DNA from: Escherichia coli
GTDB taxonomy: Bacteria; Pseudomonadota; Gammaproteobacteria; Enterobacterales; Enterobacteriaceae
Assembly (NCBI RefSeq): GCF_024223415.1
Contig: NZ_CP100502.1
DNA: 64,000 nucleotides
Reading direction: 5' to 3' (one strand)
Shown here: positions 2,444-21,140 of the stretch, piece by piece
Layout: the number at the start of each line of letters is the position of its first letter
How positions within the stretch are numbered: position 1 is the first letter of the stretch
Notes under the pieces: model-generated
Told to the model about the DNA's origin: nothing
Seen by the model: only the letters and a program-made list of their open reading frames with translations
Database searches by the model: none
Translations under genes and position numbers: made by a program

Positions 2444-3424
2444 ATGAAAATCTTTATTGATGATGGTTCTACCAACATTAAACTTGCCTGGTTGGAGGAT
2501 GGTGACGTGAAAACGTTAATCAGCCCTAACAGCTTTAAACCGGAATGGTCTTTTAGTTTACTGGATGATGCTGCTCCGGCTAATTACGAGATCGACGGCG
2601 AGAAGTTTTCATTTGATCCATTAAGTGCTGATGCTGTCGTAACGACTGAAACACGCTATCAGTACAGTGATGTGAATGTTGTGGCCATTCAGCATGCGCT
2701 ACAGCAGACCGGCCTGAAAGCGCAGCCTGTTGATGTCATCGTCACATTGCCGATCTCTGAATACCTTGACGCCAACAATCAGAAAAATAAGCAAAACATT
2801 GAAAGAAAGAAAAAAAATGTGATGCGTGAAGTACGGGTGCAGGGGAGTGATGCATTTGTTATTCGCAGTGTTTCCGTTCTTCCTGAAAGTATTCCCGCTG
2901 GTTTCAGTGTTCTTGCGGGGCTTGAGGATGATGAATCCCTTTTGATCGTAGATCTCGGTGGTACAACTCTTGATGTGTCGCATGTTCGTAGCAAAATGAC
3001 AGGGATTACAAAAACCTGGTGTGATCCGAATATCGGCGTGTCCCTGATTACATCCGGGGTTAAGGAACAGATGGCTGTACATGCTAATACAAGAGTGAGC
3101 TCATTCCAGGCTGACAATATCATTGTGCACCGTAATGAACCTGACTACCTTTCCCGTCGCATTTATAATGCTGAACAGCGTGAGTCTATCATTAATGTTA
3201 TCAATGAACGGCAGAAGTTGCTTATTAAACGAGTTAATGATGTCATCAGCCGTTTCACCGACTATACACATGTAATGTGTGTTGGTGGTGGGGCTGAAAT
3301 TGTGGCCGAGGCTGTGAAGAACCTGACTAAGGTTCCTGATGAGCGCTTTTATCTGAGCTCATCCCCGCAGTTTGATTTAGTCATGGGAATGATAAAAATG
3401 AAAGGTGGTGTGACTAATGAGTGA
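2444..3424 (+). CDS. parM: ParM/StbA actin-like partition ATPase
   Basis: seq: N-terminus 'MKIFIDDGSTNIKLAW' matches the ParM/StbA phosphate-1 motif; GGAG RBS before ATG 2444 (track ORF from 2375); AT-rich region 2140..2440 upstream. Confidence 0.8.
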   Translation: MKIFIDDGSTNIKLAWLEDGDVKTLISPNSFKPEWSFSLLDDAAPANYEIDGEKFSFDPLSADAVVTTETRYQYSDVNVVAIQHALQQTGLKAQPVDVIVTLPISEYLDANNQKNKQNIERKKKNVMREVRVQGSDAFVIRSVSVLPESIPAGFSVLAGLEDDESLLIVDLGGTTLDVSHVRSKMTGITKTWCDPNIGVSLITSGVKEQMAVHANTRVSSFQADNIIVHRNEPDYLSRRIYNAEQRESIINVINERQKLLIKRVNDVISRFTDYTHVMCVGGGAEIVAEAVKNLTKVPDERFYLSSSPQFDLVMGMIKMKGGVTNE

Positions 3425-3833
3425 TGAAAATAAATCCAGACGCTGCTCATTTGAACTTTTCCCGGATGAACGGACAGGAGATAAGATAGCAGATGAGCTC
3501 ATTGCAAATGAAAAACTGAAGGAGCGGGGACGTTTCATGCGCGCGATGTTAGTTACTGGTGCGGCGTTTGCAGCTATAGATAAACGTCTTCCTTTGCTGA
3601 TATCGGAGTTACTGACAGAAAATACGACTCTGGATGATATTAATAAGGTGATTTCCAGCGTAATACCAGGTGCTTTTTCGGTTGAAAAGAAATTGCTTGA
3701 ATTACTGGAAAAACAATCTGGTCTCCATACGTCTGTGGATTGCAGTACTCCTCTTACAGAGCAGAGTCTGTCGAGAAATGACGGTGAAGACCAGACCAGA
3801 AGAAACGCTGAAAATATGTTCGGAGATGACTGA
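3417..3833 (+). CDS. ParR/StbB-like centromere-binding adaptor
   Basis: seq: 138-aa ORF whose start overlaps the parM stop (translational coupling). infer: by position. Confidence 0.45.
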   Translation: MSDENKSRRCSFELFPDERTGDKIADELIANEKLKERGRFMRAMLVTGAAFAAIDKRLPLLISELLTENTTLDDINKVISSVIPGAFSVEKKLLELLEKQSGLHTSVDCSTPLTEQSLSRNDGEDQTRRNAENMFGDD

Positions 3834-3834
3834 A

Positions 3835-5109
3835 CTAACCCAGCCTGGCCAGGGGAATATCTCGCCATTTAGTTGTATAACACTGACTCAACATTTCCCG
3901 TTTCATTTGCCATTCAGGGGCGGTTCCTCGCCCCGCAAACCACACTTTCCCTTTTCCCGACTGGTTCAGTTCATCGAGTGTTTTCATTAACTTTTCACTG
4001 TTTTTACGGGGCTGGATTTCATCAAATAATCCCGGCTGCGCTATACCCGATGGTGTGAAATCAGCCAGCATGACACCTGCCTTCATATAGCGGTACCCTT
4101 CACGCCAGACATGGTTTAAGGCTCTGCATGCGGCGGCAATAATGTCCCGGCTGTCCTGTGTGGGCAATGGAAGCTTTTCCACAGCGGCATTGCTGTAACA
4201 GGGTTCTTTTACTGCAAAGGGTGATGTCCGTACAAATGTCGTCACCTGCCGGCAATACTGACGCTCCCCACGTAGTTTCTCTGCGGCCCGCTCTGCATAC
4301 TGAACAACAGCCTGGTGCATGGCATCTTTGTCTGTGATTCGTTCACCAAAACTGCGACTACAGACAATCTGCTGTTTTGCCGGTGGTGCTTCTTCCAGGG
4401 ATATGCAGGACTCGCCGTTGAGTTCGCGTACCGTACGCTCAAGAATGACGCTGAAGTTTTTCCGGATGAATGCCGTGTTAGCCTGCGCCAGCTGCAGTGC
4501 TGTGTTAATACCCAGCGCATTCAGCTTTTCCGTCAGTCTGTGTCCTACTCCCCAGACCTCACCAACTGGCTGCAGCCCCAGTAGCTTCAAGATCCGATTA
4601 CGGTTTTCTGCCGTCAGCGCGACCACTCCGGAAAACTGTGGCCATTGCTTTGTTGCCCACTGTGCACTTTTAGCCAGCGTTTTTGTAGGCGCAATGCCCA
4701 CCCCCATGGTGAGTCCTGTCCAGCTCTTTACCTGTTTCCTGAGCTGATGACCAAAAAACTCCGGAGAGATGCAATGATTTATCCCCCGCAAATCAATGAA
4801 CATTTCATCAATTGAGTAGGGCTCAACTGCGGGAGAAAGCGACTCCAGAACAGCCATAACCCGTTGGCTCATGCTGTGGTACAGCGCATAATTGCTGGAA
4901 AATACATGTATTTTCTTCTCCAGGCGCATTTGTCTCACCTGAAACCAGGGCTGCCCCATTCTGATGCCAAGGGCTTTTGCCTCCGGGCTGCGCGCGATCA
5001 CACAGCCATCGTTATTGCTGAGTACGATGACCGGTTCGTTGCGAAGGTCCGGGCGGAAAACTTTTTCACATGAGGCGTAGAAACTGTTGATATCAGCCAG
5101 TGCAAACAT
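3835..5109 (-). CDS. impB: Error-prone translesion polymerase subunit (UmuC family)
   Basis: seq: 424 aa, N-terminus 'MFALADINSFYASCEKVFRPDLRNEPVIVLSNNDGCVIARSPEAKALGI' is the Y-family polymerase signature. known: impCAB is typical of IncI1 plasmids. Confidence 0.9.
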   Translation of the reverse strand: MFALADINSFYASCEKVFRPDLRNEPVIVLSNNDGCVIARSPEAKALGIRMGQPWFQVRQMRLEKKIHVFSSNYALYHSMSQRVMAVLESLSPAVEPYSIDEMFIDLRGINHCISPEFFGHQLRKQVKSWTGLTMGVGIAPTKTLAKSAQWATKQWPQFSGVVALTAENRNRILKLLGLQPVGEVWGVGHRLTEKLNALGINTALQLAQANTAFIRKNFSVILERTVRELNGESCISLEEAPPAKQQIVCSRSFGERITDKDAMHQAVVQYAERAAEKLRGERQYCRQVTTFVRTSPFAVKEPCYSNAAVEKLPLPTQDSRDIIAAACRALNHVWREGYRYMKAGVMLADFTPSGIAQPGLFDEIQPRKNSEKLMKTLDELNQSGKGKVWFAGRGTAPEWQMKREMLSQCYTTKWRDIPLARLG

Positions 5110-5546
5110 CAGCGTAACTCCCGCGTCCTGTGTATCACGTGAGTGACAACACCAAAAATACAGATGTTTTCCGGATACAGTGTGCGGAACTCCGGGCTGT
5201 CTGAAACCGGCTCCAGTGCCGGGCGTGGGCGCAACAGCAGTCGTTTGACGGTGAACTCACCGTCGATCTCAGCGATAACGATGTCCCCGTGTTGTGGTTT
5301 TTCGGCCCTGTCCACTACCAGCAGATCACCATTCTGCACGCCAGCCTGGTTCATCGATTCACCGCTGGCGCGCAGAAAGAAGGTGGCTGCAGGTCTGCTG
5401 ATGCAATAGCTGTTCAGATCCAGTTCCTGCTCAGCATAATCAGTGGCAGGCGAAGGAAAACCGGCCTGGCAACGATCGGCAAACAACGGTCGCACGTAAC
5501 TGTCATCGCCTGAAGGGTCAGCCGGACGGTGATAAACGGTACTCAT
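5109..5546 (-). CDS. impA: UmuD-like LexA-family self-cleaving protein
   Basis: seq: 145 aa with S24-peptidase-like region 'ASGESMNQAGVQNGDLLVVDRAE'; start overlaps the impB region. Confidence 0.85.
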   Translation of the reverse strand: MSTVYHRPADPSGDDSYVRPLFADRCQAGFPSPATDYAEQELDLNSYCISRPAATFFLRASGESMNQAGVQNGDLLVVDRAEKPQHGDIVIAEIDGEFTVKRLLLRPRPALEPVSDSPEFRTLYPENICIFGVVTHVIHRTRELR

Positions 5547-5791
5547 GCTGCAGGCAGCCAGCTGTCGTCCTGCCAGATTTCTTCCAGCAGAGACAGGATA
5601 CGTTCTTTATCCTTGTCGTTGCGGGCTCCTGTGACAGATACAGACGGGGCGCTGCCCTGGTCTATACGCAGCCAGATTTCCGGGTAGTGTGGTTTCAGAC
5701 GTTGTTCGATTTCATTCTGTAGCGCCTGAAGTGTGCCTGATTTGAGGTTTTTTGTGCTCTGGCGGTCGAAAAGAATTTCAATGCGGATCAT
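5543..5791 (-). CDS. impC: ImpC, small first gene of the impCAB operon
   Basis: seq: 82-aa ORF overlapping the impA start. known: size and order match impCAB. Confidence 0.7.
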   Translation of the reverse strand: MIRIEILFDRQSTKNLKSGTLQALQNEIEQRLKPHYPEIWLRIDQGSAPSVSVTGARNDKDKERILSLLEEIWQDDSWLPAA

Positions 5792-5812
5792 GTTCTCATC
5801 TCCCTTTTCTTT

Positions 5813-5832
5813 TGCTGTATGTATATACAGTA
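5813..5832. promoter_or_regulatory. LexA (SOS) box upstream of impC
   Basis: seq: 'tgCTGTatgtatatACAGta' fits CTGT-N8-ACAG about 25 to 40 nt upstream of the impC start. Confidence 0.6.
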
Positions 5833-5959
5833 TTCTAATAACTGAATCCGCACACAGTCAAATGTCATTGTTGTGACTAAAAAACGCTCAATTCTCTGAG
5901 TGTGTGGCTGTATGCCTGCTGTGGGCTGCTGTGTCCAGCTTATCCACAGCATTTTGTGC

Positions 5960-6160
5960 ACGGTTCTGTGGACAAAATACCTGGTTACCCAGGCCGTGCC
6001 GGCACGTTAACCGGGCTGCATCCGATGCAAGTGTGTCGCTGTCGCCGGCCTCCTCACCCGGTCACGTTTCGTCGTTCCTCCTCCACGCGCTGCGGCTTCG
6101 GGGCCGCACCTGCATTCGTATGCGGTCGCCCGGTAACAGGTGCGGCACGGCCTGATGGAG
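5960..6160. repeat. GC-rich structured region with loose similarity to the family-A ssi-like repeat
   Basis: seq: 'gcatccgatgcaagtgtgtcgctgtcgccggcctcctcacccggtcac' resembles the family-A core 'gggatgcaagggtacgcttcgccgctgcggtcacccggtc'; lies directly upstream of the + strand ORF at 6185. Confidence 0.3.
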
Positions 6161-6184
6161 GCCGCATGTGAGAGGAGAATTCCC

Positions 6185-7111
6185 ATGCCAAACTGGTGCT
6201 CGAATCGTATGTATTTTTCTGGTGAACCGGCACAGATCGCTGAGATTAAACGACTGGCCAGCGGTGCAGTTACACCGCTTTATCGCCGCGCCACAAATGA
6301 AGGTATTCAGCTGTTTCTGGCCGGAAGTGCCGGACTTCTGCAGATCACTGAAAATATCCGCTCTGAACAGTGCCCCGGAGTGACGGCTGCCGGACGTGGT
6401 GCTGTATCGACGGAAAATATCGCGTTCACCCGCTGGCTGACACACCTGCAGAACGGTGTACTGCTGGATGAGCAAAACTGCCTGATGCTGCATGAACTCT
6501 GGCTGCAGAGCGGTACTGGACAGCGTCGCTGGGAAGGATTACCGGATGATGTCAGGGAAACCATCACTGTGCATTTCACCGCAAAAAGAGGTGACTGGTG
6601 TGACATCTGGGGTAGCGAGGATGTATCGGTGTGGTGGAACCGTCTGTGTGACAACGTAGTGCCGGAAAAAACCATGCCGTTTGACCTGCTGACGGTTCTG
6701 CCGACCCGCCTGGATGTTGAAGTGAATGGCTTTAATGGTGGTGTTCTGAACGGTGTTCCTTCTGCATATCACTGGTATACAGAACGGTATGGCGTGAAGT
6801 GGCCTTGTGGGTATGACCTGAATATCAGTAGTCAGGGAGACAACTGCATTCAGGTGGATTTCGACACGCCGTGGTGTCAGCCGGAAAGCGACGTTGTTGC
6901 AGCATTAAGCCGCCGTTTCGGCTGCACGCTGGAGCACTGGTACGCCGAACAGGGCTGCAATTTCTGTGGCTGGCAGTTGTATGAGCGCGGAGAGCTCGTT
7001 GATGTGCTCTGGGGGGAACTGGAATGGTCTTCCCCGACAGATGACGATGAGCTGCCGGAAGTCACCGGACCTGCGTGGATAGTCGACAAGGTGGCGCATT
7101 ACGGGGGATGA
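6185..7111 (+). CDS. Hypothetical Cys/Trp-rich protein
   Basis: seq: GAGAGGAG RBS before ATG 6185 (track ORF from 6140); many Cys and Trp ('NWCSNRMYF', 'FGCTLEHWYAEQGCNFCGWQ'); no motif I can name. Confidence 0.5.
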   Translation: MPNWCSNRMYFSGEPAQIAEIKRLASGAVTPLYRRATNEGIQLFLAGSAGLLQITENIRSEQCPGVTAAGRGAVSTENIAFTRWLTHLQNGVLLDEQNCLMLHELWLQSGTGQRRWEGLPDDVRETITVHFTAKRGDWCDIWGSEDVSVWWNRLCDNVVPEKTMPFDLLTVLPTRLDVEVNGFNGGVLNGVPSAYHWYTERYGVKWPCGYDLNISSQGDNCIQVDFDTPWCQPESDVVAALSRRFGCTLEHWYAEQGCNFCGWQLYERGELVDVLWGELEWSSPTDDDELPEVTGPAWIVDKVAHYGG

Positions 7112-7123
7112 AGTATGACGGAG

Positions 7124-7150
7124 ACGGGCGGGCAACCGCCCGTTTCTTTT
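7124..7150 (+). terminator. Rho-independent terminator
   Basis: seq: stem 'acgggcgg'/'ccgcccgt' with loop 'gcaa', then 'ttctttt', 13 nt after the stop of the 6185..7111 ORF. Confidence 0.55.
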
Positions 7151-7490
7151 CCGACAAAGGATGTCGCCGTGCTCCTCTGTTTACTGCGCCGGCTGATGCG
7201 GCGCGGCATAAACGCTGCCTGTGGTCAGTGTCCCGCGTCCGGCGGGCACGGGACGGGCGCTTTTACCGCTCCCGGCTGGCGTCGGTGACAGTGTACGCCA
7301 GCCTGTCGCCCTTTTCTGATGAACGCCCTTCAAGCCGCTTTCGCGGCATATTCTCGCCGTCAAAAAGACGACGGCTGCGATATTCCACGGTCGGCCTGAC
7401 CCGTTACCGGACGCGGTGAACAGCCCACAGGCAGCGGGGAACGGGCACCACAGGGGTGCCCTCCCGGTGCCCTCTGAGAAAGAAGGAGTG
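7150..7490. repeat. GC-rich hairpin-rich non-coding region (possible diverged ssi-like element) upstream of the methyltransferase
   Basis: seq: 340 nt with several hairpins (e.g. 'gggcaccacaggggtgccc') and weak resemblance to family B ('cgctcccggctggcg'). Confidence 0.2.
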
Positions 7491-7495
7491 TTGTT

Positions 7496-8179
7496 ATGTC
7501 CCGTTTTGTCCTCGGTAACTGCATTGATGTTATGGCGCGTATTCCTGATAACGGCATTGATTTCATACTGACTGACCCGCCATACCTCGTCGGTTTTCGT
7601 GACCGACAGGGGCGTACCATCGCCGGCGATAAAACCGATGAATGGCTGCAACCAGCCTGTAATGAAATGTATCGCGTACTCAAAAAAGATGCGCTGATGG
7701 TCAGCTTCTACGGCTGGAACCGCGTCGATCGCTTTATGGCCGCCTGGAAAAATGCGGGATTCAGTGTGGTTGGGCACCTGGTCTTCACCAAAAACTACAC
7801 ATCGAAGGCCGCATATGTGGGTTATCGCCACGAATGCGCCTACGTTCTGGCAAAAGGCCGTCCGGCGCTGCCTCAGAAGCCATTACCCGACGTGCTGGGC
7901 TGGAAATATTCAGGCAATCGTCATCACCCGACGGAAAAGCCTGTTACCAGCCTGCAACCACTGATTGAGAGCTTCACACATCCGAACGCGATTGTGCTGG
8001 ACCCGTTTGCAGGCAGCGGCTCAACCTGCGTGGCTGCCCTTCAGTCCGGACGCCGGTATATCGGTATCGAGCTGCTTGAGCAGTATCACCGTGCCGGACA
8101 GCAACGTCTGGCTGCCGTACAGCGGGCCATGCAGCAGGGGGCCGCAAATGATGACTGGTTTATGCCGGAGGCTGCGTAA
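7496..8179 (+). CDS. Orphan DNA adenine (N6) methyltransferase
   Basis: seq: 227 aa with 'FILTDPPY' (motif IV, DPPY) and 'DPFAGSGST' (AdoMet-binding motif I); GAAGGAG RBS. known: orphan MTases are common in plasmid leading regions. Confidence 0.85.
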   Translation: MSRFVLGNCIDVMARIPDNGIDFILTDPPYLVGFRDRQGRTIAGDKTDEWLQPACNEMYRVLKKDALMVSFYGWNRVDRFMAAWKNAGFSVVGHLVFTKNYTSKAAYVGYRHECAYVLAKGRPALPQKPLPDVLGWKYSGNRHHPTEKPVTSLQPLIESFTHPNAIVLDPFAGSGSTCVAALQSGRRYIGIELLEQYHRAGQQRLAAVQRAMQQGAANDDWFMPEAA

Positions 8180-9726: not shown

Positions 9727-10057
9727 GGAAGTCGCCGCCGGCTCCGCTTTACCCGGCCATGCGGGGCATGGCCTTGTGGGTTTTCAGTTATGTGGCCACC
9801 GTGTCGTGTGCGGGCTGTGCCGTGCCTCCATCTTAGCCGGGCTGGCAGGGATGCAAGGGTACGCTTCGCCGCTGCGGTCACCCGGTCCCTCCTTCCCGTC
9901 TGCCGTGATTTTCCGGTCGTTCACCCGCTCAGATTTCGCGGTCTCACCCTCCAACTCCCGCCAGCCGTGTGCGTCAGGCTGCGGCTTCCCTTGCGCCCTG
10001 TGCATCCCCGCCTTATCGCCCGGCTTTTATGGAGGCACGGCACCGCCCGGTGTCGCG
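9727..10057 (+). repeat. Family-A ssi/Frpo-like repeat, copy A1
   Basis: seq: about 330 nt nearly identical to 16711..17041, GC-rich and hairpin-rich, ending about 30 nt before a gene start. known: IncI1 and F leading regions carry ssi/Frpo single-strand promoters. Confidence 0.6.
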
Positions 10058-11199: not shown

Positions 11200-11905
11200 G
11201 CCCGCGCGAAAACCCCTGGCAGGCTGACGCCTGCCGGAAGGGAAGCGGGCCACGCTGGCGCGTCGCCCGTTACCCTTCCCGTCTGTGATGTGTCTGACTC
11301 AGGAGTGTTTCTTTCTTATGTTATGGAACTGTTCCTGATGTTGTTGTTCCTTTATCTGCTGCTCTGATTCTGACTACTGCAGTGTTGTTCTGTCTGCCGG
11401 GCGCACCTTCGGCTCCCGGCTGCCTGGCGGCATCCGGTCGTCAGGCCCGACTCCGACAGGCAGCTGCTGGCGCACCCGCCAGTCTCCGCCGAACCCGCTG
11501 GCGCGGTTTCGGGCTGTCGCTACGGTCCGATGCGTGAAAACCCGGGCTTGCAGCGACCGTTCCGGTCGCGCCGCCTCTGTCGCGCCGTGACCTGCGCTCC
11601 CTGCACACCTGACGGTGTGTGAGGAAACTGCGCCTGATGGCGCAGCAGTCCTCCCTCCTGCCGCCACCTCTGCGGCCTGTTTCCCGCTGTGGACTTTCCG
11701 GGGGGCAGACGTAACCCCCTCCCGTTCCATCTGTCCAGGGTGAGATGCACCGGCCACAAAATTTTTAGCCATGAACCCGGCAAAAAATTTTGCGTCCGCC
11801 CCCGGACAGCTGTCCCGTGAGGCGGTAAACGGGCCCCCATCGGAAAGGTCCACTGCGGGGAGAAACCCCTGTGAAGTGGACGGCAGGAGGAGCTTTCGCT
11901 CCTCT
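11200..11905 (+). repeat. Family-B ssi/Frpo-like repeat, copy B1
   Basis: seq: long GC-rich repeat shared with 17600..18250 and partly with 20815..21140 (e.g. 'caccttcggctcccggctgcctggcggcatccggtcgtcaggcccgactccgacaggcag'); ends about 70 nt before ssb. Confidence 0.55.
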
Positions 11906-12792: not shown

Positions 12793-12850
12793 GAGAGGTG
12801 CCGGACGCGCGAACGTCCGGCAGGACATAAGCAATTATAAGGGGATGATT

Positions 12851-14809
12851 ATGCCTGTAACGAAGTGTGAACCAGAAACCACCCGCAAAGCAAGCCGTAA
12901 ATCTGCAAAAACGCAGGAAACTGCCCTGTCTGCCCTGCTGGCGCAGACGGAGGAAGTGAGCGTGCCGCTGGCCTCACTGATTAAATCACCGCTGAATGTG
13001 CGCACGGTGCCGTATTCTGTGGAGTCCGTCAGCGAACTGGCTGGGTCCATTAAGGGCGTTGGCCTGTTGCAGAATCTGGTCGTGCATACCCTGCCTGGTG
13101 ACCGTTACGGTGTCGCCGCAGGTGGTCGCCGACTGGCTGCACTCAACATGCTGGCAGAGCGCAACATCCTTCCGGCTGACTGGCCTGTCCGTGTGAAGGT
13201 CATCCCGCAGGAACTGGCGACTGCCGCATCGATGACCGAGAACGGTCATCGTCGGGATATGCACCCTGCCGAACAGATTGCCGGATTCCGCGCATTGGCG
13301 CAGGAAGGCAAAACACCTGCACAGACTGGCGACCTGCTGGGCTATTCACCCCGCCACGTTCAGCGAATGCTGAAACTGGCAGACCTTGCGCCTGTCATCC
13401 TCGATGCGCTGGCAGAGGACCGCATCACCACCGAGCACTGTCAGGCGCTGGCGCTGGAGAGCGACACCGCGCGTCAGGTGCAGGTGTTTGAAGCGGCCTG
13501 CCAGTCAGGATGGGGCGGTAAACCGGATGTGCGGGTTATCCGCAACCTGATTACGGAAAGTGAAGTGGCAGTGAAGGACAACACTAAATTCCGCTTTGTG
13601 GGGGCTGATGCCTTCTCGCCAGACGAATTGCGCACCGATTTGTTCAGCGATGACGGGGACGGTTATGTCGACCGCGTGGCGCTCGATGCCGCCCTGCTGG
13701 AAAAACTCCAGGCTGTTGCAGAGTTCCTTCGGGAAGCCGAAGGCTGGGAATGGTGCGCCGGGCGCATGGAGCCTGTCGGTGAGTGCCGTGAGGATGCCGG
13801 AACATACCGCTGTCTGCCGGAGCCGGAAGCGGTGCTGACGGAGGCGGAAGACGAACGCCTGAACGAACTGATGACGCGTTACGACGCGCTGGAAAACCAG
13901 TGTGAGGAATCCGACCTGCTGGAAGCAGAAATGAAGCTGATGCGCTGCATGGCGAAGGTCAGAGCGTGGACGCCGGAGATACGTGCCGGAAGCGGTGTGG
14001 TGGTGTCCTGGCGTTATGGCAACGTATGTGTCCAGCGTGGTGTGCAGTTGCGCAGTGAAGATGACGCGACTGACGACGCTGACCGCACGGAACAGGTGCA
14101 GGAGAAAGCGTCAGTGGAGGAAATCAGCCTGCCGTTGCTGACGAAAATGTCCTCAGAGCGCACGCTGGCAGTCCAGGCGGCACTCATGCAGCAGCCGGAC
14201 AAATCTCTGGCACTGCTGGCATGGACGCTCTGCCTGAATGTGTTTGGCAGCGGGGCGTACAGTAAACCAGCACAAATCAGCCTGGAATGTGAACATTATT
14301 CGCTGACCAGCGATGCGCCATCGGGGAAGGAAGGTGCCGCATTCATGGCGCTGATGGCAGAAAAATCCCGTCTTGCAGCCCTGCTGCCGGAGGGATGGTC
14401 ACGGGACATGACGACATTCCTGTCCCTCAGTCAGGAGGTGCTGTTATCCCTGCTCAGTTTCTGCACCGCATGCAGCCTTAACGGTGTCCAGACCCGTGAG
14501 TGTGGTCACACGTCACGCAGTCCGCTTGACTCGCTGGAAAGCGCTATCGGATTCCACATGCGCGACTGGTGGCAGCCGACAAAAGCAAACTTCTTCGGAC
14601 ACCTGAAAAAGCCGCAGATTATCGCAGCCCTGAATGAGGCCGGACTGTCCGGTGCCGCACGGGACGCGGAGAAGATGAAGAAAGGTGATGCGGCTGAACA
14701 TGCAGAGCACCATATGAAAGACAACCGCTGGGTTCCAGGCTGGATGTGTGCACCACATCCACAGACAGATGCCACTGAACGCACCGATAACCTGGCTGAT
14801 GCCGCCTGA
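12851..14809 (+). CDS. Large ParB/Sulfiredoxin-domain (ParB-like nuclease) protein
   Basis: seq: N-terminal ParB-like region 'LIKSPLNVRTVPYSVESVSELAGSIKGVGLLQNLVVH...GGRRLAALNML'; AAGGGG RBS before ATG 12851 (track from 12761). known: a large ParB-like gene sits between ssb and psiB in F/IncI leading regions. Confidence 0.7.
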   Translation: MPVTKCEPETTRKASRKSAKTQETALSALLAQTEEVSVPLASLIKSPLNVRTVPYSVESVSELAGSIKGVGLLQNLVVHTLPGDRYGVAAGGRRLAALNMLAERNILPADWPVRVKVIPQELATAASMTENGHRRDMHPAEQIAGFRALAQEGKTPAQTGDLLGYSPRHVQRMLKLADLAPVILDALAEDRITTEHCQALALESDTARQVQVFEAACQSGWGGKPDVRVIRNLITESEVAVKDNTKFRFVGADAFSPDELRTDLFSDDGDGYVDRVALDAALLEKLQAVAEFLREAEGWEWCAGRMEPVGECREDAGTYRCLPEPEAVLTEAEDERLNELMTRYDALENQCEESDLLEAEMKLMRCMAKVRAWTPEIRAGSGVVVSWRYGNVCVQRGVQLRSEDDATDDADRTEQVQEKASVEEISLPLLTKMSSERTLAVQAALMQQPDKSLALLAWTLCLNVFGSGAYSKPAQISLECEHYSLTSDAPSGKEGAAFMALMAEKSRLAALLPEGWSRDMTTFLSLSQEVLLSLLSFCTACSLNGVQTRECGHTSRSPLDSLESAIGFHMRDWWQPTKANFFGHLKKPQIIAALNEAGLSGAARDAEKMKKGDAAEHAEHHMKDNRWVPGWMCAPHPQTDATERTDNLADAA

Positions 14810-16710: not shown

Positions 16711-17041
16711 GGAAGTCGCCGGCGGCTCCGCTTTTACCCGGCCATGCGGGGCATGGCCTTGTGGGTTTTCAGCTCTGTGGCCTCAGCGTCGTGTGCGGGC
16801 TGTGCCGTGCCTCCATCTTAGCCGGGCTGGCAGGGATGCAAGGGTACGCTTCGCCGCTGCGGTCACCCGGTCCCTCCTTCCCGTCTGCCGTGATTTTCCG
16901 GTCGTTCACCCGCTCAGATTTCGCGGTCTCACCCTCCAACTCCCGCCAGCCGTGTGCGTCAGGCTGCGGCTTCCCTTGCGCCCTGTGCATCCCCGCCTTA
17001 TCGCCCGGCTTTTATGGAGGCACGGCACCGCCCGGTGTCGC
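16711..17041 (+). repeat. Family-A ssi/Frpo-like repeat, copy A2
   Basis: seq: near-identical to 9727..10057; ends about 30 nt before ardA. Confidence 0.6.
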
Positions 17042-17599: not shown

Positions 17600-18250
17600 C
17601 CTGCCAGGCCGCCGGAAAACCCTGGCAGGCTTACGCCTGCCTGAAATGCAGGAGGGCCGCGCCTGCGGCGCTGCCCTTCCTGCCCGTCATGGTGTGAGGC
17701 ATTTTTCTGTTATGTCGTTTCTGTTGTTCTGATTTCCGGAGGCGGGGACACCTTCGGCTCCCGGCTGCCTGGCGGCATCCGGTCGTCAGGCCCGACTCCG
17801 ACAGGCAGCTGCTGGCGCACCCGCCAGTCTCCGCCGAACCCGCTGGCGCGGTTTCGGGCTGCCGCTACGGTCCGATGTCTGAAAAACCAGGCTTGCAGCG
17901 ACCGTTCCGGTCGCGCCGCCCCTGTCGCGCCGGAAACGGCGCTCCCTGCACACCTTACGGTGTGTAAGGCAACTGCGCCTGATGGCGCAGTCAACCCTTC
18001 CGCCGCCACCCCTGCGGCCTGTTTCCCGCTGTGGACTTTCCGGGGGCTGGAGTAACCACATCCCGTTTCAGCAGTCCAGGGGAAGATATACCGTCCACAA
18101 AATTTTTAGCCATAAACCCGGCAAAAAATTTTGCGTCCGCCCCCGGACAGCTGCCCCGTGACGTGGTGACGGACGCCCCATCGGAAAGGTCCACTGCGGG
18201 GAGAAACCCCGAAGAAGTGGACGGCAGAAGGGGCTTTCGCCCCTCCGGGG
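17600..18250 (+). repeat. Family-B ssi/Frpo-like repeat, copy B2
   Basis: seq: aligns along its length with 11200..11905; starts right after the ardA stop. Confidence 0.55.
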
Positions 18251-20712: not shown

Positions 20713-20814
20713 TTTTTGATTGTAGGTGTCGTGCTGTTTTCTCTGTTTTCACCTGTGCGGGAGTGGTGTGCCAGTGACCACCACATGCCATTGTTGCGCC
20801 GTCGTTTTTCTTCA

Positions 20815-21140
20815 GTCGCGCCGGATGCGGCGCTCCCTGCACACCTTACGGTGTGTAAGGCCACTGCGCCTGATGGCGCAGCTGTCTCTGCCTGTCTGCC
20901 GCCGCACTGCGGCCTGTTCTCCGCAGATGGACTTTCCGGGGGTACATACACGACCACATCCCGTTTCAGTCGTCCAGGGGAGAGATGTACCAGCCACAAA
21001 ACTTTTTGCCGCAGGCGTCAAAAACTTTTGCGTCTGCCCCCGGACAACTGCCCCGTGACGTGGTGAGCGTCCCCCGTCGGAAAGGTCCACTGCGGGGAAA
21101 TCCCCGAAGACCCGGACGGCAGAAGGAGCTTCGCTCCTCC
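20815..21140 (+). repeat. Family-B ssi/Frpo-like repeat, copy B3 (5'-truncated)
   Basis: seq: matches the 3' two-thirds of B1/B2 from 'ggcgctccctgcacaccttacggtgtgtaagg' onward. Confidence 0.5.

Follow-up and report, generated by a model that had tools for sequence, protein, structure and literature searches.

Here, we identify a gene at the distal end of a plasmid leading region as the IncI1 ortholog of YfaB (R64), YubB (F), and Hp8 (pESBL), encoding a soluble, acidic protein of the DUF1281/Api92-like family. We define a canonical motif set that has been lost in the only solved structure of the family, link the family to a very large group of phage proteins, and find that class 2-like or class 3-like hairpins recur directly before the gene. 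DUF1281 is a well-catalogued family with a known fold and has already been flagged as a prevalent uncharacterized leading-region gene. On balance we lean toward an account in which the gene encodes an early, single-strand-transcribed accessory protein that would act in plasmid establishment through one conserved site, and we give this account somewhat better than an even chance. The window analyzed is a 64,000-nucleotide stretch of Escherichia coli DNA (NZ_CP100502.1) from an IncI1-type plasmid, whose bases 5500–7500 are 100% identical to ColIb-P9 and many other records.

The reading frame runs from an ATG at 6185 to a stop codon at 7109–7111 on the plus strand.

6172..6177, + strand: Shine-Dalgarno sequence GAGGAG, 7 nt before ATG 6185, read from sequence
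6185..7111, + strand: yfaB/yubB-type gene for the DUF1281/Api92-like protein, 308 aa plus stop

Judged from the sequence, ATG 6185 is the correct start, because GAGGAG lies 7 nt upstream and the N-terminal MPNWCxNR is found family-wide, including in phage relatives. Many IncI1 records carry a RefSeq/PGAP start at ATG 6209 (300 aa), which is 8 codons late and loses MPNWCSNR (6185–6208), while the pESBL record uses the correct start.

The preliminary description of this DNA had noted at least ten cysteines and many tryptophans, and the 308-residue frame indeed holds 11 cysteines (positions 5, 63, 99, 139, 155, 208, 221, 231, 247, 258, and 261) and 16 tryptophans (5.2%). None of the other non-nested open reading frames in the window that are 200 aa or longer (34 in all) is richer in either residue, and relative to typical E. 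coli frequencies the binomial tails are 1e-3 for cysteine and 2e-5 for tryptophan. Acidic residues outnumber basic ones by 42 to 22 for a net charge of −20, and most family members fall between −13 and −33; a high content of tryptophan as well as cysteine is likewise general in the family. The two closely spaced cysteine strings singled out earlier are both present, as GCNFCGW at residues 257–263 and NCIQVDFDTPWC at residues 220–231, but only one true CxxC occurs, C258-N-F-C261.

Family assignment was unambiguous. The protein scores 156.5 bits against Pfam DUF1281 (PF06924; gathering threshold 27.3) and 53.5 bits against DUF1281_C (PF18406; gathering threshold 22.8), both models are matched by all 41 aligned homologs, and among structures the protein matches Api92 of Yersinia pseudotuberculosis (2IJR, E = 1e-46), to which a profile search of PDB sequences added no other entry. 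YfaB, YubB, and Hp8 share the same neighbors with no material difference and are the same gene; pESBL-EA11 Hp8 is 92% identical to the window protein, which depositors and databases have also named YccB, YfdA, and W0052. Of 72,556 plasmids, at least 5000 carry the gene, which is intact in 4793 of the best 5000 plasmid records. In Supplementary Table 1 of Samuel et al. (Nature 2024), which covers the 100 largest leading-region families, DUF1281 is family 27, with 1949 members, enrichment in leading regions, an FDR p reported as 0, a median position of ORF 22 from oriT, strand 1 (the transferred-strand orientation), and the label "Uncharacterized; DUF1281"; neither DIAMOND nor Foldseek linked any of the 1949 members to anti-CRISPR or anti-restriction proteins.

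Our own searches assigned no function. NCBIfam and PADLOC returned zero matches, PHROGs relatives fell only in function-unassigned families, and Pfam, NCBIfam, and PADLOC revealed no similarity to known anti-restriction or anti-CRISPR families (ArdA, ArdB/KlcA, ArdC, Acr). IMG/VR contained no close relative of the window protein itself, and a literature search on DUF1281, Api92, and their Pfam accessions found no functional study. The homology searches likewise turned up no housekeeping enzyme family, a match that the preliminary description had named as grounds for abandoning its view of the protein. Database fusions of DUF1281 with PsiB, the methylase, UmuD, and others were discarded as uninformative, each being a single-member assembly of neighboring genes at more than 90% identity.

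The structural model of the window protein shows the Api92 fold, in which an N-terminal strand and a C-terminal ferredoxin-like sheet domain are separated by a helical insert.

6185..6220, + strand: strand β1, residues 1–12, motif M-P-N-W-C-x-N-R (model strand E4–12; conservation)
6272..6802, + strand: helical DUF1281 module, residues 30–206 (PF06924 span; helices in model)
6809..7030, + strand: YubB-type ferredoxin-like domain, residues 209–282 (PF18406; model strands and helix)
7031..7108, + strand: acidic linker plus C-terminal tail, with H-Y-G-G as its free carboxyl end (pLDDT 85–95)

The helical module is inserted between β1 and the remaining sheet and, by alignment, is mostly absent from phage forms of about 200 aa. 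The ferredoxin-like domain carries F226-D227-T228-x-W230 and E255-x-G257-xx-F260-C261-G262, and its BFVD matches are YubB ferredoxin-like proteins of uncultured phages and giant viruses. The terminal (H/N)(Y/F)GG occurs in most canonical homologs and is absent, together with other motifs, in an Api92-like branch.

Scanning viral contigs with a marine homolog recovered phage proteins of about 200 aa that start with MPNWCANK and carry WGTKWD, FD(S/T)AWSPP, and EPGxxFCG without most of the helical insert. In a joint alignment of long and phage mini forms, M1, W4, C5, N7, G203, W206, W230, and G262 are invariant and P2, N3, K205, F226, D227, P232, and E255 nearly so. From these patterns we define a canonical YubB-type motif set, MPNWCxN(R/K), GxKW, FD(T/S)xW, and ExGxxFCG, which is complete in the window protein. 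The PF18406 mini proteins of phages, giant viruses, and polinton-like viruses (PHROGs 20518 and 12644) share it as MPNWCxN(K/R), (W/Y)G(T/V)KW, FD(T/S)xWxP, and ExGxxFCG. Like the window protein they are acidic and built on the same sheet domain; unlike it they span only about 170–260 aa, are missing the terminal HYGG as well as most of the helical insert, and are encoded in early or replication regions of phages instead of a plasmid leading region. A single phage mini form matched more than 6600 protein clusters, all unnamed.

We also noted recurring surroundings of these relatives. In four phage-like contigs (L020, L021, L031, L032) mini-YubB belongs to a recurring gene cluster, in which a 494-aa AAA ATPase (L021, L031, L032) is followed by mini-YubB, a protein of about 315–321 aa without a Pfam match, and finally a protein of about 330 aa; the last has a hexapeptide-repeat match in L021, and DUF2997 precedes the ATPase in L031 and L032. 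The marine long form (L004) lies a few genes ahead of a CbbQ/DUF3150/VWA gene set. An ICE-like metagenomic contig (L015, 444–2427) encodes tandem DUF1281 paralogs, the second without a DUF1281_C match, followed by DUF6094 and SNF2-type helicase genes.

Among long forms, P2, K205/W206, G257, F260/C261, and (H/N)(Y/F)GG are kept or lost jointly. The branch that has lost them is a minority and includes the crystallized Api92, a structural-genomics entry without an assigned function (PDB 2IJR; SCOP e.66.1, "Api92-like"). Its representative P0157 lacks Pro2, Lys205, Gly257, Phe260, Cys261, and HYGG while keeping Trp206, and Api92 itself aligns with SE at positions 2–3, Ala at 205, and Arg at 261. 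The sequence comparison thus marks 2IJR as a divergent, possibly degenerate, family member.

By ferredoxin-like topology the motif residues fall at the start of β1, before β2, at the end of β3, and in the β4–β5 turn, from which we infer, on the basis of the model, that they form a single site at one edge of the sheet. One alternative, which we regard as doubtful, is an enzyme acting on a small molecule or on DNA, with either a processed N-terminus (Pro2 exposed, in the manner of the tautomerase superfamily or of Fpg-type enzymes) or Cys5 as nucleophile or base. Initiator methionine is removed before proline, the near-invariant M-P-N-W-C sits at the extreme N-terminus where β1 of a β-α-β type domain begins, the motifs abound in residues that active sites typically contain (Cys, Lys, Asp, Glu, and Gly), and the motif residues are jointly lost in the minority branch. 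The tautomerase superfamily combines Pro1 on a β-α-β unit with sequence or fold similarity to its members, and this combination was not found here.

The cysteines had also been read as signs of a metal- or redox-dependent fold, a proposal that conservation did not bear out. Cys5 is conserved in 37 of 41 homologs and Cys261 in 33, which makes them the only broadly conserved pair among the 11; Cys247 follows with 28 and Cys99 with 21, the CxxC pair is limited by its first cysteine, Cys258, to 15, and Cys221 and Cys231, within NCIQVDFDTPWC, are variable. An alternative in which the cysteines bind zinc or iron or form a redox-active pair central to function draws on cysteine richness as a family trait (mostly 7–13 per protein), on the presence of Cys5 and Cys261 in phage mini forms as well, and on the retention of His251 in 35 of 41 long forms alongside Cys247. 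Against it, nine of the 11 cysteines vary, the Api92 branch and phage forms lack at least one of Cys247, His251, and Cys261, and the β-hairpin register of the model would place His251 and Cys261 on opposite faces of the sheet. Pfam, fold, and PDB profile searches matched no zinc-ribbon, Fe–S, or thioredoxin family or fold, and the protein presents neither a set of at least three to four conserved Cys/His ligands nor a conserved CxxC in a thioredoxin fold. "Ferredoxin-like" is the name of a fold only (β-α-β-β-α-β), and a paper on polinton-like viruses misread it as denoting an electron carrier. From sequence conservation, then, a metal or redox role appears unlikely, and we assign this alternative a low probability; a two-cysteine site formed by Cys5 and Cys261 is possible.

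To place the gene in its surroundings, we mapped its position within the leading region.

2444–3833: ParM/StbB
3835–5791, − strand: impCAB (umuDC-like)
7108–7419, + strand: doubtful small ORF
7496–8179, + strand (the strand common to the DUF1281–ArdA block): M.EcoGIX-type methylase (N6_N4)
10086: KlcA
11938: SSB, followed by a ParB-like gene, psiB, and psiA
about 17070: ArdA
about 22.6 kb: nikA/oriT

All genes from DUF1281 to ArdA, including ssb, psiB, and ardA, lie on one strand, which according to the literature is the orientation that uses the transferred strand as template. With umuDC upstream on the opposite strand, DUF1281 is the most oriT-distal gene of this block, about 16 kb from nikA/oriT, in agreement with its earlier placement at the distal end of the leading region. 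It sits within an anti-defense island (methylase, KlcA, SSB, PsiB, ArdA) and belongs to a family that the literature counts among the most prevalent in leading regions, and the candidacy as an establishment factor that had been advanced from position alone is reasonable and in line with published views. The order umuDC(−), DUF1281(+), methylase, KlcA is kept in plasmids whose DUF1281 proteins are 59%, 49%, 49%, and 45% identical, and more distant homologs on ICE-like or metagenomic contigs adjoin ArdC, SSB/RecT/YqaJ, or DUF6094 and SNF2 genes.

Several neighboring features deserve separate mention. The ORF at 7108–7419 (+), annotated "hypothetical protein", encodes an Arg-rich product, overlaps the DUF1281 stop codon (ATGA), lies wholly inside the hairpin upstream of the methylase, is omitted from the revised pESBL annotation, and has a dN/dS of about 0.58 from only 10 changes; it is probably not a gene. 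In several otherwise identical IncI1 plasmids an ISKox3 element (ISL3-like) lies between impC and the DUF1281 hairpin, as in L026 (NZ_CP006641.1, 556–1776, corresponding to window position about 5800–5900), with hairpin and gene intact. A 2026 preprint renames F YfjB, a homolog of the ParB-like gene at 12815–14809, as HerB; we set it aside as a source on DUF1281 since it concerns that neighbor instead.

The constant position of DUF1281 directly upstream of the N6_N4 methylase, seen in all enterobacterial plasmids examined, could also mean that the protein serves as an accessory factor, either to the single-strand DNA methyltransferase next to it (M.EcoGIX type) or to DNA methylation generally. 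DUF6094 genes, presumably of a methyltransferase-like family, occur nearby in ICE-like contigs, and in one phage the mini-form gene and the end of an FkbM-type methyltransferase gene overlap. We nevertheless think this highly improbable: DUF1281 and the methylase each have their own promoter-type hairpin, several loci have no annotated methylase in the neighborhood examined, and cloned M.EcoGIX worked alone, judging from how PMC7736820 describes its cloning and expression.

How the gene might be expressed is suggested by the DNA directly before it, where an inverted repeat and DNA folding reveal an imperfect hairpin.

5990..6154, − strand (transferred strand): imperfect hairpin, candidate class 2-related single-strand promoter (inverted repeat and DNA fold)
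6025..6030, − strand: −35-like TTGCAT, on the non-template arm (same hexamer at the same place in both class 2 hairpins)
6004..6009, − strand: −10-like TAACGT, 15 nt after TTGCAT (identical in L028)
7112..7495, − strand: large hairpin before the methylase, a neighboring element (−109 kcal/mol, z = −6.8)

The arms of the first hairpin span 5990–6016 and 6128–6154, and its fold is more stable than shuffled sequences (z = −5.2; −49.4 kcal/mol for 5985–6160). The hairpin region is 74% identical over 71–73 nt to 9819–9887 and 16804–16872, which belong to the klcA and ardA elements that a study of pESBL (Wen et al., NAR 2025; PMC12672017) describes as class 2 single-strand promoters with starts mapped by 5′ RACE. 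Both kinds of hairpin form on the transferred strand directly upstream of a leading-region gene, are homologous in the left arm and stem base, and share a TTGCAT-N15-TAAnnT layout (TAAGAT at the same 15-nt spacing in class 2). The hairpin geometry (TTGCAT-N15-TAACGT) predicts that transcription begins near window position 6147, some 38 nt upstream of the ATG, a distance comparable to the roughly 40 nt of class 2. The DUF1281 element is, however, shorter (about 165 versus about 250 nt) and less stable (per 300 nt, −71.9 kcal/mol versus −84 to −87 kcal/mol), it has a weaker −10-like hexamer than class 2, and its start is only predicted where class 2 starts are mapped.

The Frpo/ssi elements (class 1) are a more distant comparison. 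BLAST of 5790–6190 against the ssi/Frpo-type repeats at 11383–11904, 17722–18245, and 20812–21139 gave no match, and by sequence similarity the hairpin does not belong to class 1 (Frpo/ssi1–3). The upstream DNA had been described as a diverged ssi-like region; the long transferred-strand hairpin is real, but its relatives are the class 2 elements of klcA and ardA and not ssi or Frpo. A search for sigma-70-like sites in 5600–7600 found none facing DUF1281, the sole one being the imp promoter on the opposite strand (5861–5832, −). Just downstream of the −10 of that promoter lies CTGTATGTATATACAG (5815–5830), a LexA-box-like palindrome of the form CTGT-N8-ACAG, which on sequence grounds fits SOS control of impCAB.

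Repeating the scan of the pESBL study (300-nt windows, DNA parameters, cut-off −75 kcal/mol) yielded exactly six intergenic peaks below the cut-off, with the DUF1281 upstream region reaching only −71.9 kcal/mol, about the same as some peaks inside coding regions. Falling short of the cut-off may be why the hairpin is not among the six published promoters; in the text of the study, which reports six induced operons, no operon is named with DUF1281 as its first gene. On the transferred strand, a 300-nt window at about 13210–13510 (−) folds at −80.6 kcal/mol, lower than the published cut-off, yet it is intracoding, inside the ParB-like gene. The neighboring hairpin at 7112–7495 (−91.7 kcal/mol per 300 nt) bears no similarity to other elements in the window, and we equate it with the class 3 single-strand promoter published for M.EcoGIX, following the class definition in PMC12672017.

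We considered conservation of the upstream region as proof of selection on the hairpin. This argument is weakened by the adjoining imp genes, which are equally conserved in IncI and IncF, and IncI/IncF upstream conservation partly reflects a shared, nearly identical imp segment. We therefore relied on F, which has no adjoining imp operon and in which the hairpin is 95.8% conserved, and on compensatory pairs. A consensus from a small set of four sequences, with the hairpin kept in F, Salmonella, and Kosakonia plasmids, contains 43 pairs, 7 of which are changed on both sides. In the Salmonella plasmid, whose protein is 59% identical, the hairpin is 83% conserved with identical hexamers, and in Klebsiella and E. 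coli plasmids with proteins of 49% and 45% identity (L008, L029) class 3-type copies stand directly upstream of DUF1281 instead. A class 2-like or class 3-like hairpin thus precedes the gene in all four diverged plasmids examined (45–59% protein identity). From these sequence features we predict that IncI1 leading regions contain a seventh single-strand promoter, with a start near 6147.

The gene scored as dispensable for transfer in the laboratory. In the pESBL TnSeq data Hp8 is classed as non-essential (1.00), and its scores for maintenance and for transfer into E. coli K-12 are both 0.00. In the F reference (L027, NC_002483.1, 3856–4781) the gene is split by a 1-nt deletion in the A-run GGAAAAAACC at about codon 161 (window position about 6660–6670), which may be either a genuine mutation or a mistake in early sequencing and probably accounts for the use of YubB as a name for the C-terminal ferredoxin-like half. 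Together with a dN/dS of about 0.32 (against two orthologs), four times the value of about 0.08 for the neighboring methylase, and many truncated or fused database entries, these observations might suggest a decaying or neutral passenger without a current establishment role. We consider such a passenger quite improbable, as the gene is intact in nearly all of the best 5000 plasmid records noted above, synteny and full length are retained down to 45% identity, the motifs stay invariant even in phage relatives, dN/dS is plainly less than 1, and ArdA, PsiB, and M.EcoGIX received the same scores in that TnSeq data set and are equally "non-essential". The pattern is consistent with an accessory gene on which selection is purifying but relaxed or changing.

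In the account we favor, DUF1281 is the first gene, farthest from oriT, of the block templated by the transferred strand. In the recipient, its transcription would use the incoming single strand and start within the hairpin at 5990–6154, and its translation would begin from GAGGAG/ATG (6172–6185). The protein would then be active only during establishment, via one conserved sheet-edge site composed of Pro2-Asn3-Trp4-Cys5-x-Asn7-Arg8, Gly203-x-Lys205-Trp206, Phe226-Asp227-Thr228-x-Trp230, and Glu255-x-Gly257-xx-Phe260-Cys261-Gly262. The partner of this site, bound or chemically modified by it, may be a conserved one that is of the host or derived from DNA, which would point to an anti-barrier or establishment accessory function and not to replication or transfer. 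A bolder version, which we offer tentatively and to which we attach only a modest minority chance, would make YfaB/YubB a domain-expanded plasmid member of the PF18406 superfamily that is made from the entering strand via an exchangeable promoter hairpin, class 2-like in some plasmids and class 3-like in others, uses its motifs as a catalytic or ligand site, and neutralizes a conserved bacterial barrier. If true, this would define a new class of anti-defense or establishment factor common to plasmids, ICEs, and viruses.

DUF1281 is among the commonest genes of IncI/IncF resistance plasmids, present on at least 5000 public plasmids, and among the largest leading-region families without an assigned function. 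Our comparative results point to Pro2, Cys5, Lys205, Asp227, and Cys261 as candidate key residues, and they counsel caution in the use of 2IJR, the only crystal structure, which represents an atypical member. Once found, the role of DUF1281 would give insight into how resistance plasmids establish themselves in new hosts and would supply a role for thousands of related phage and giant-virus proteins.
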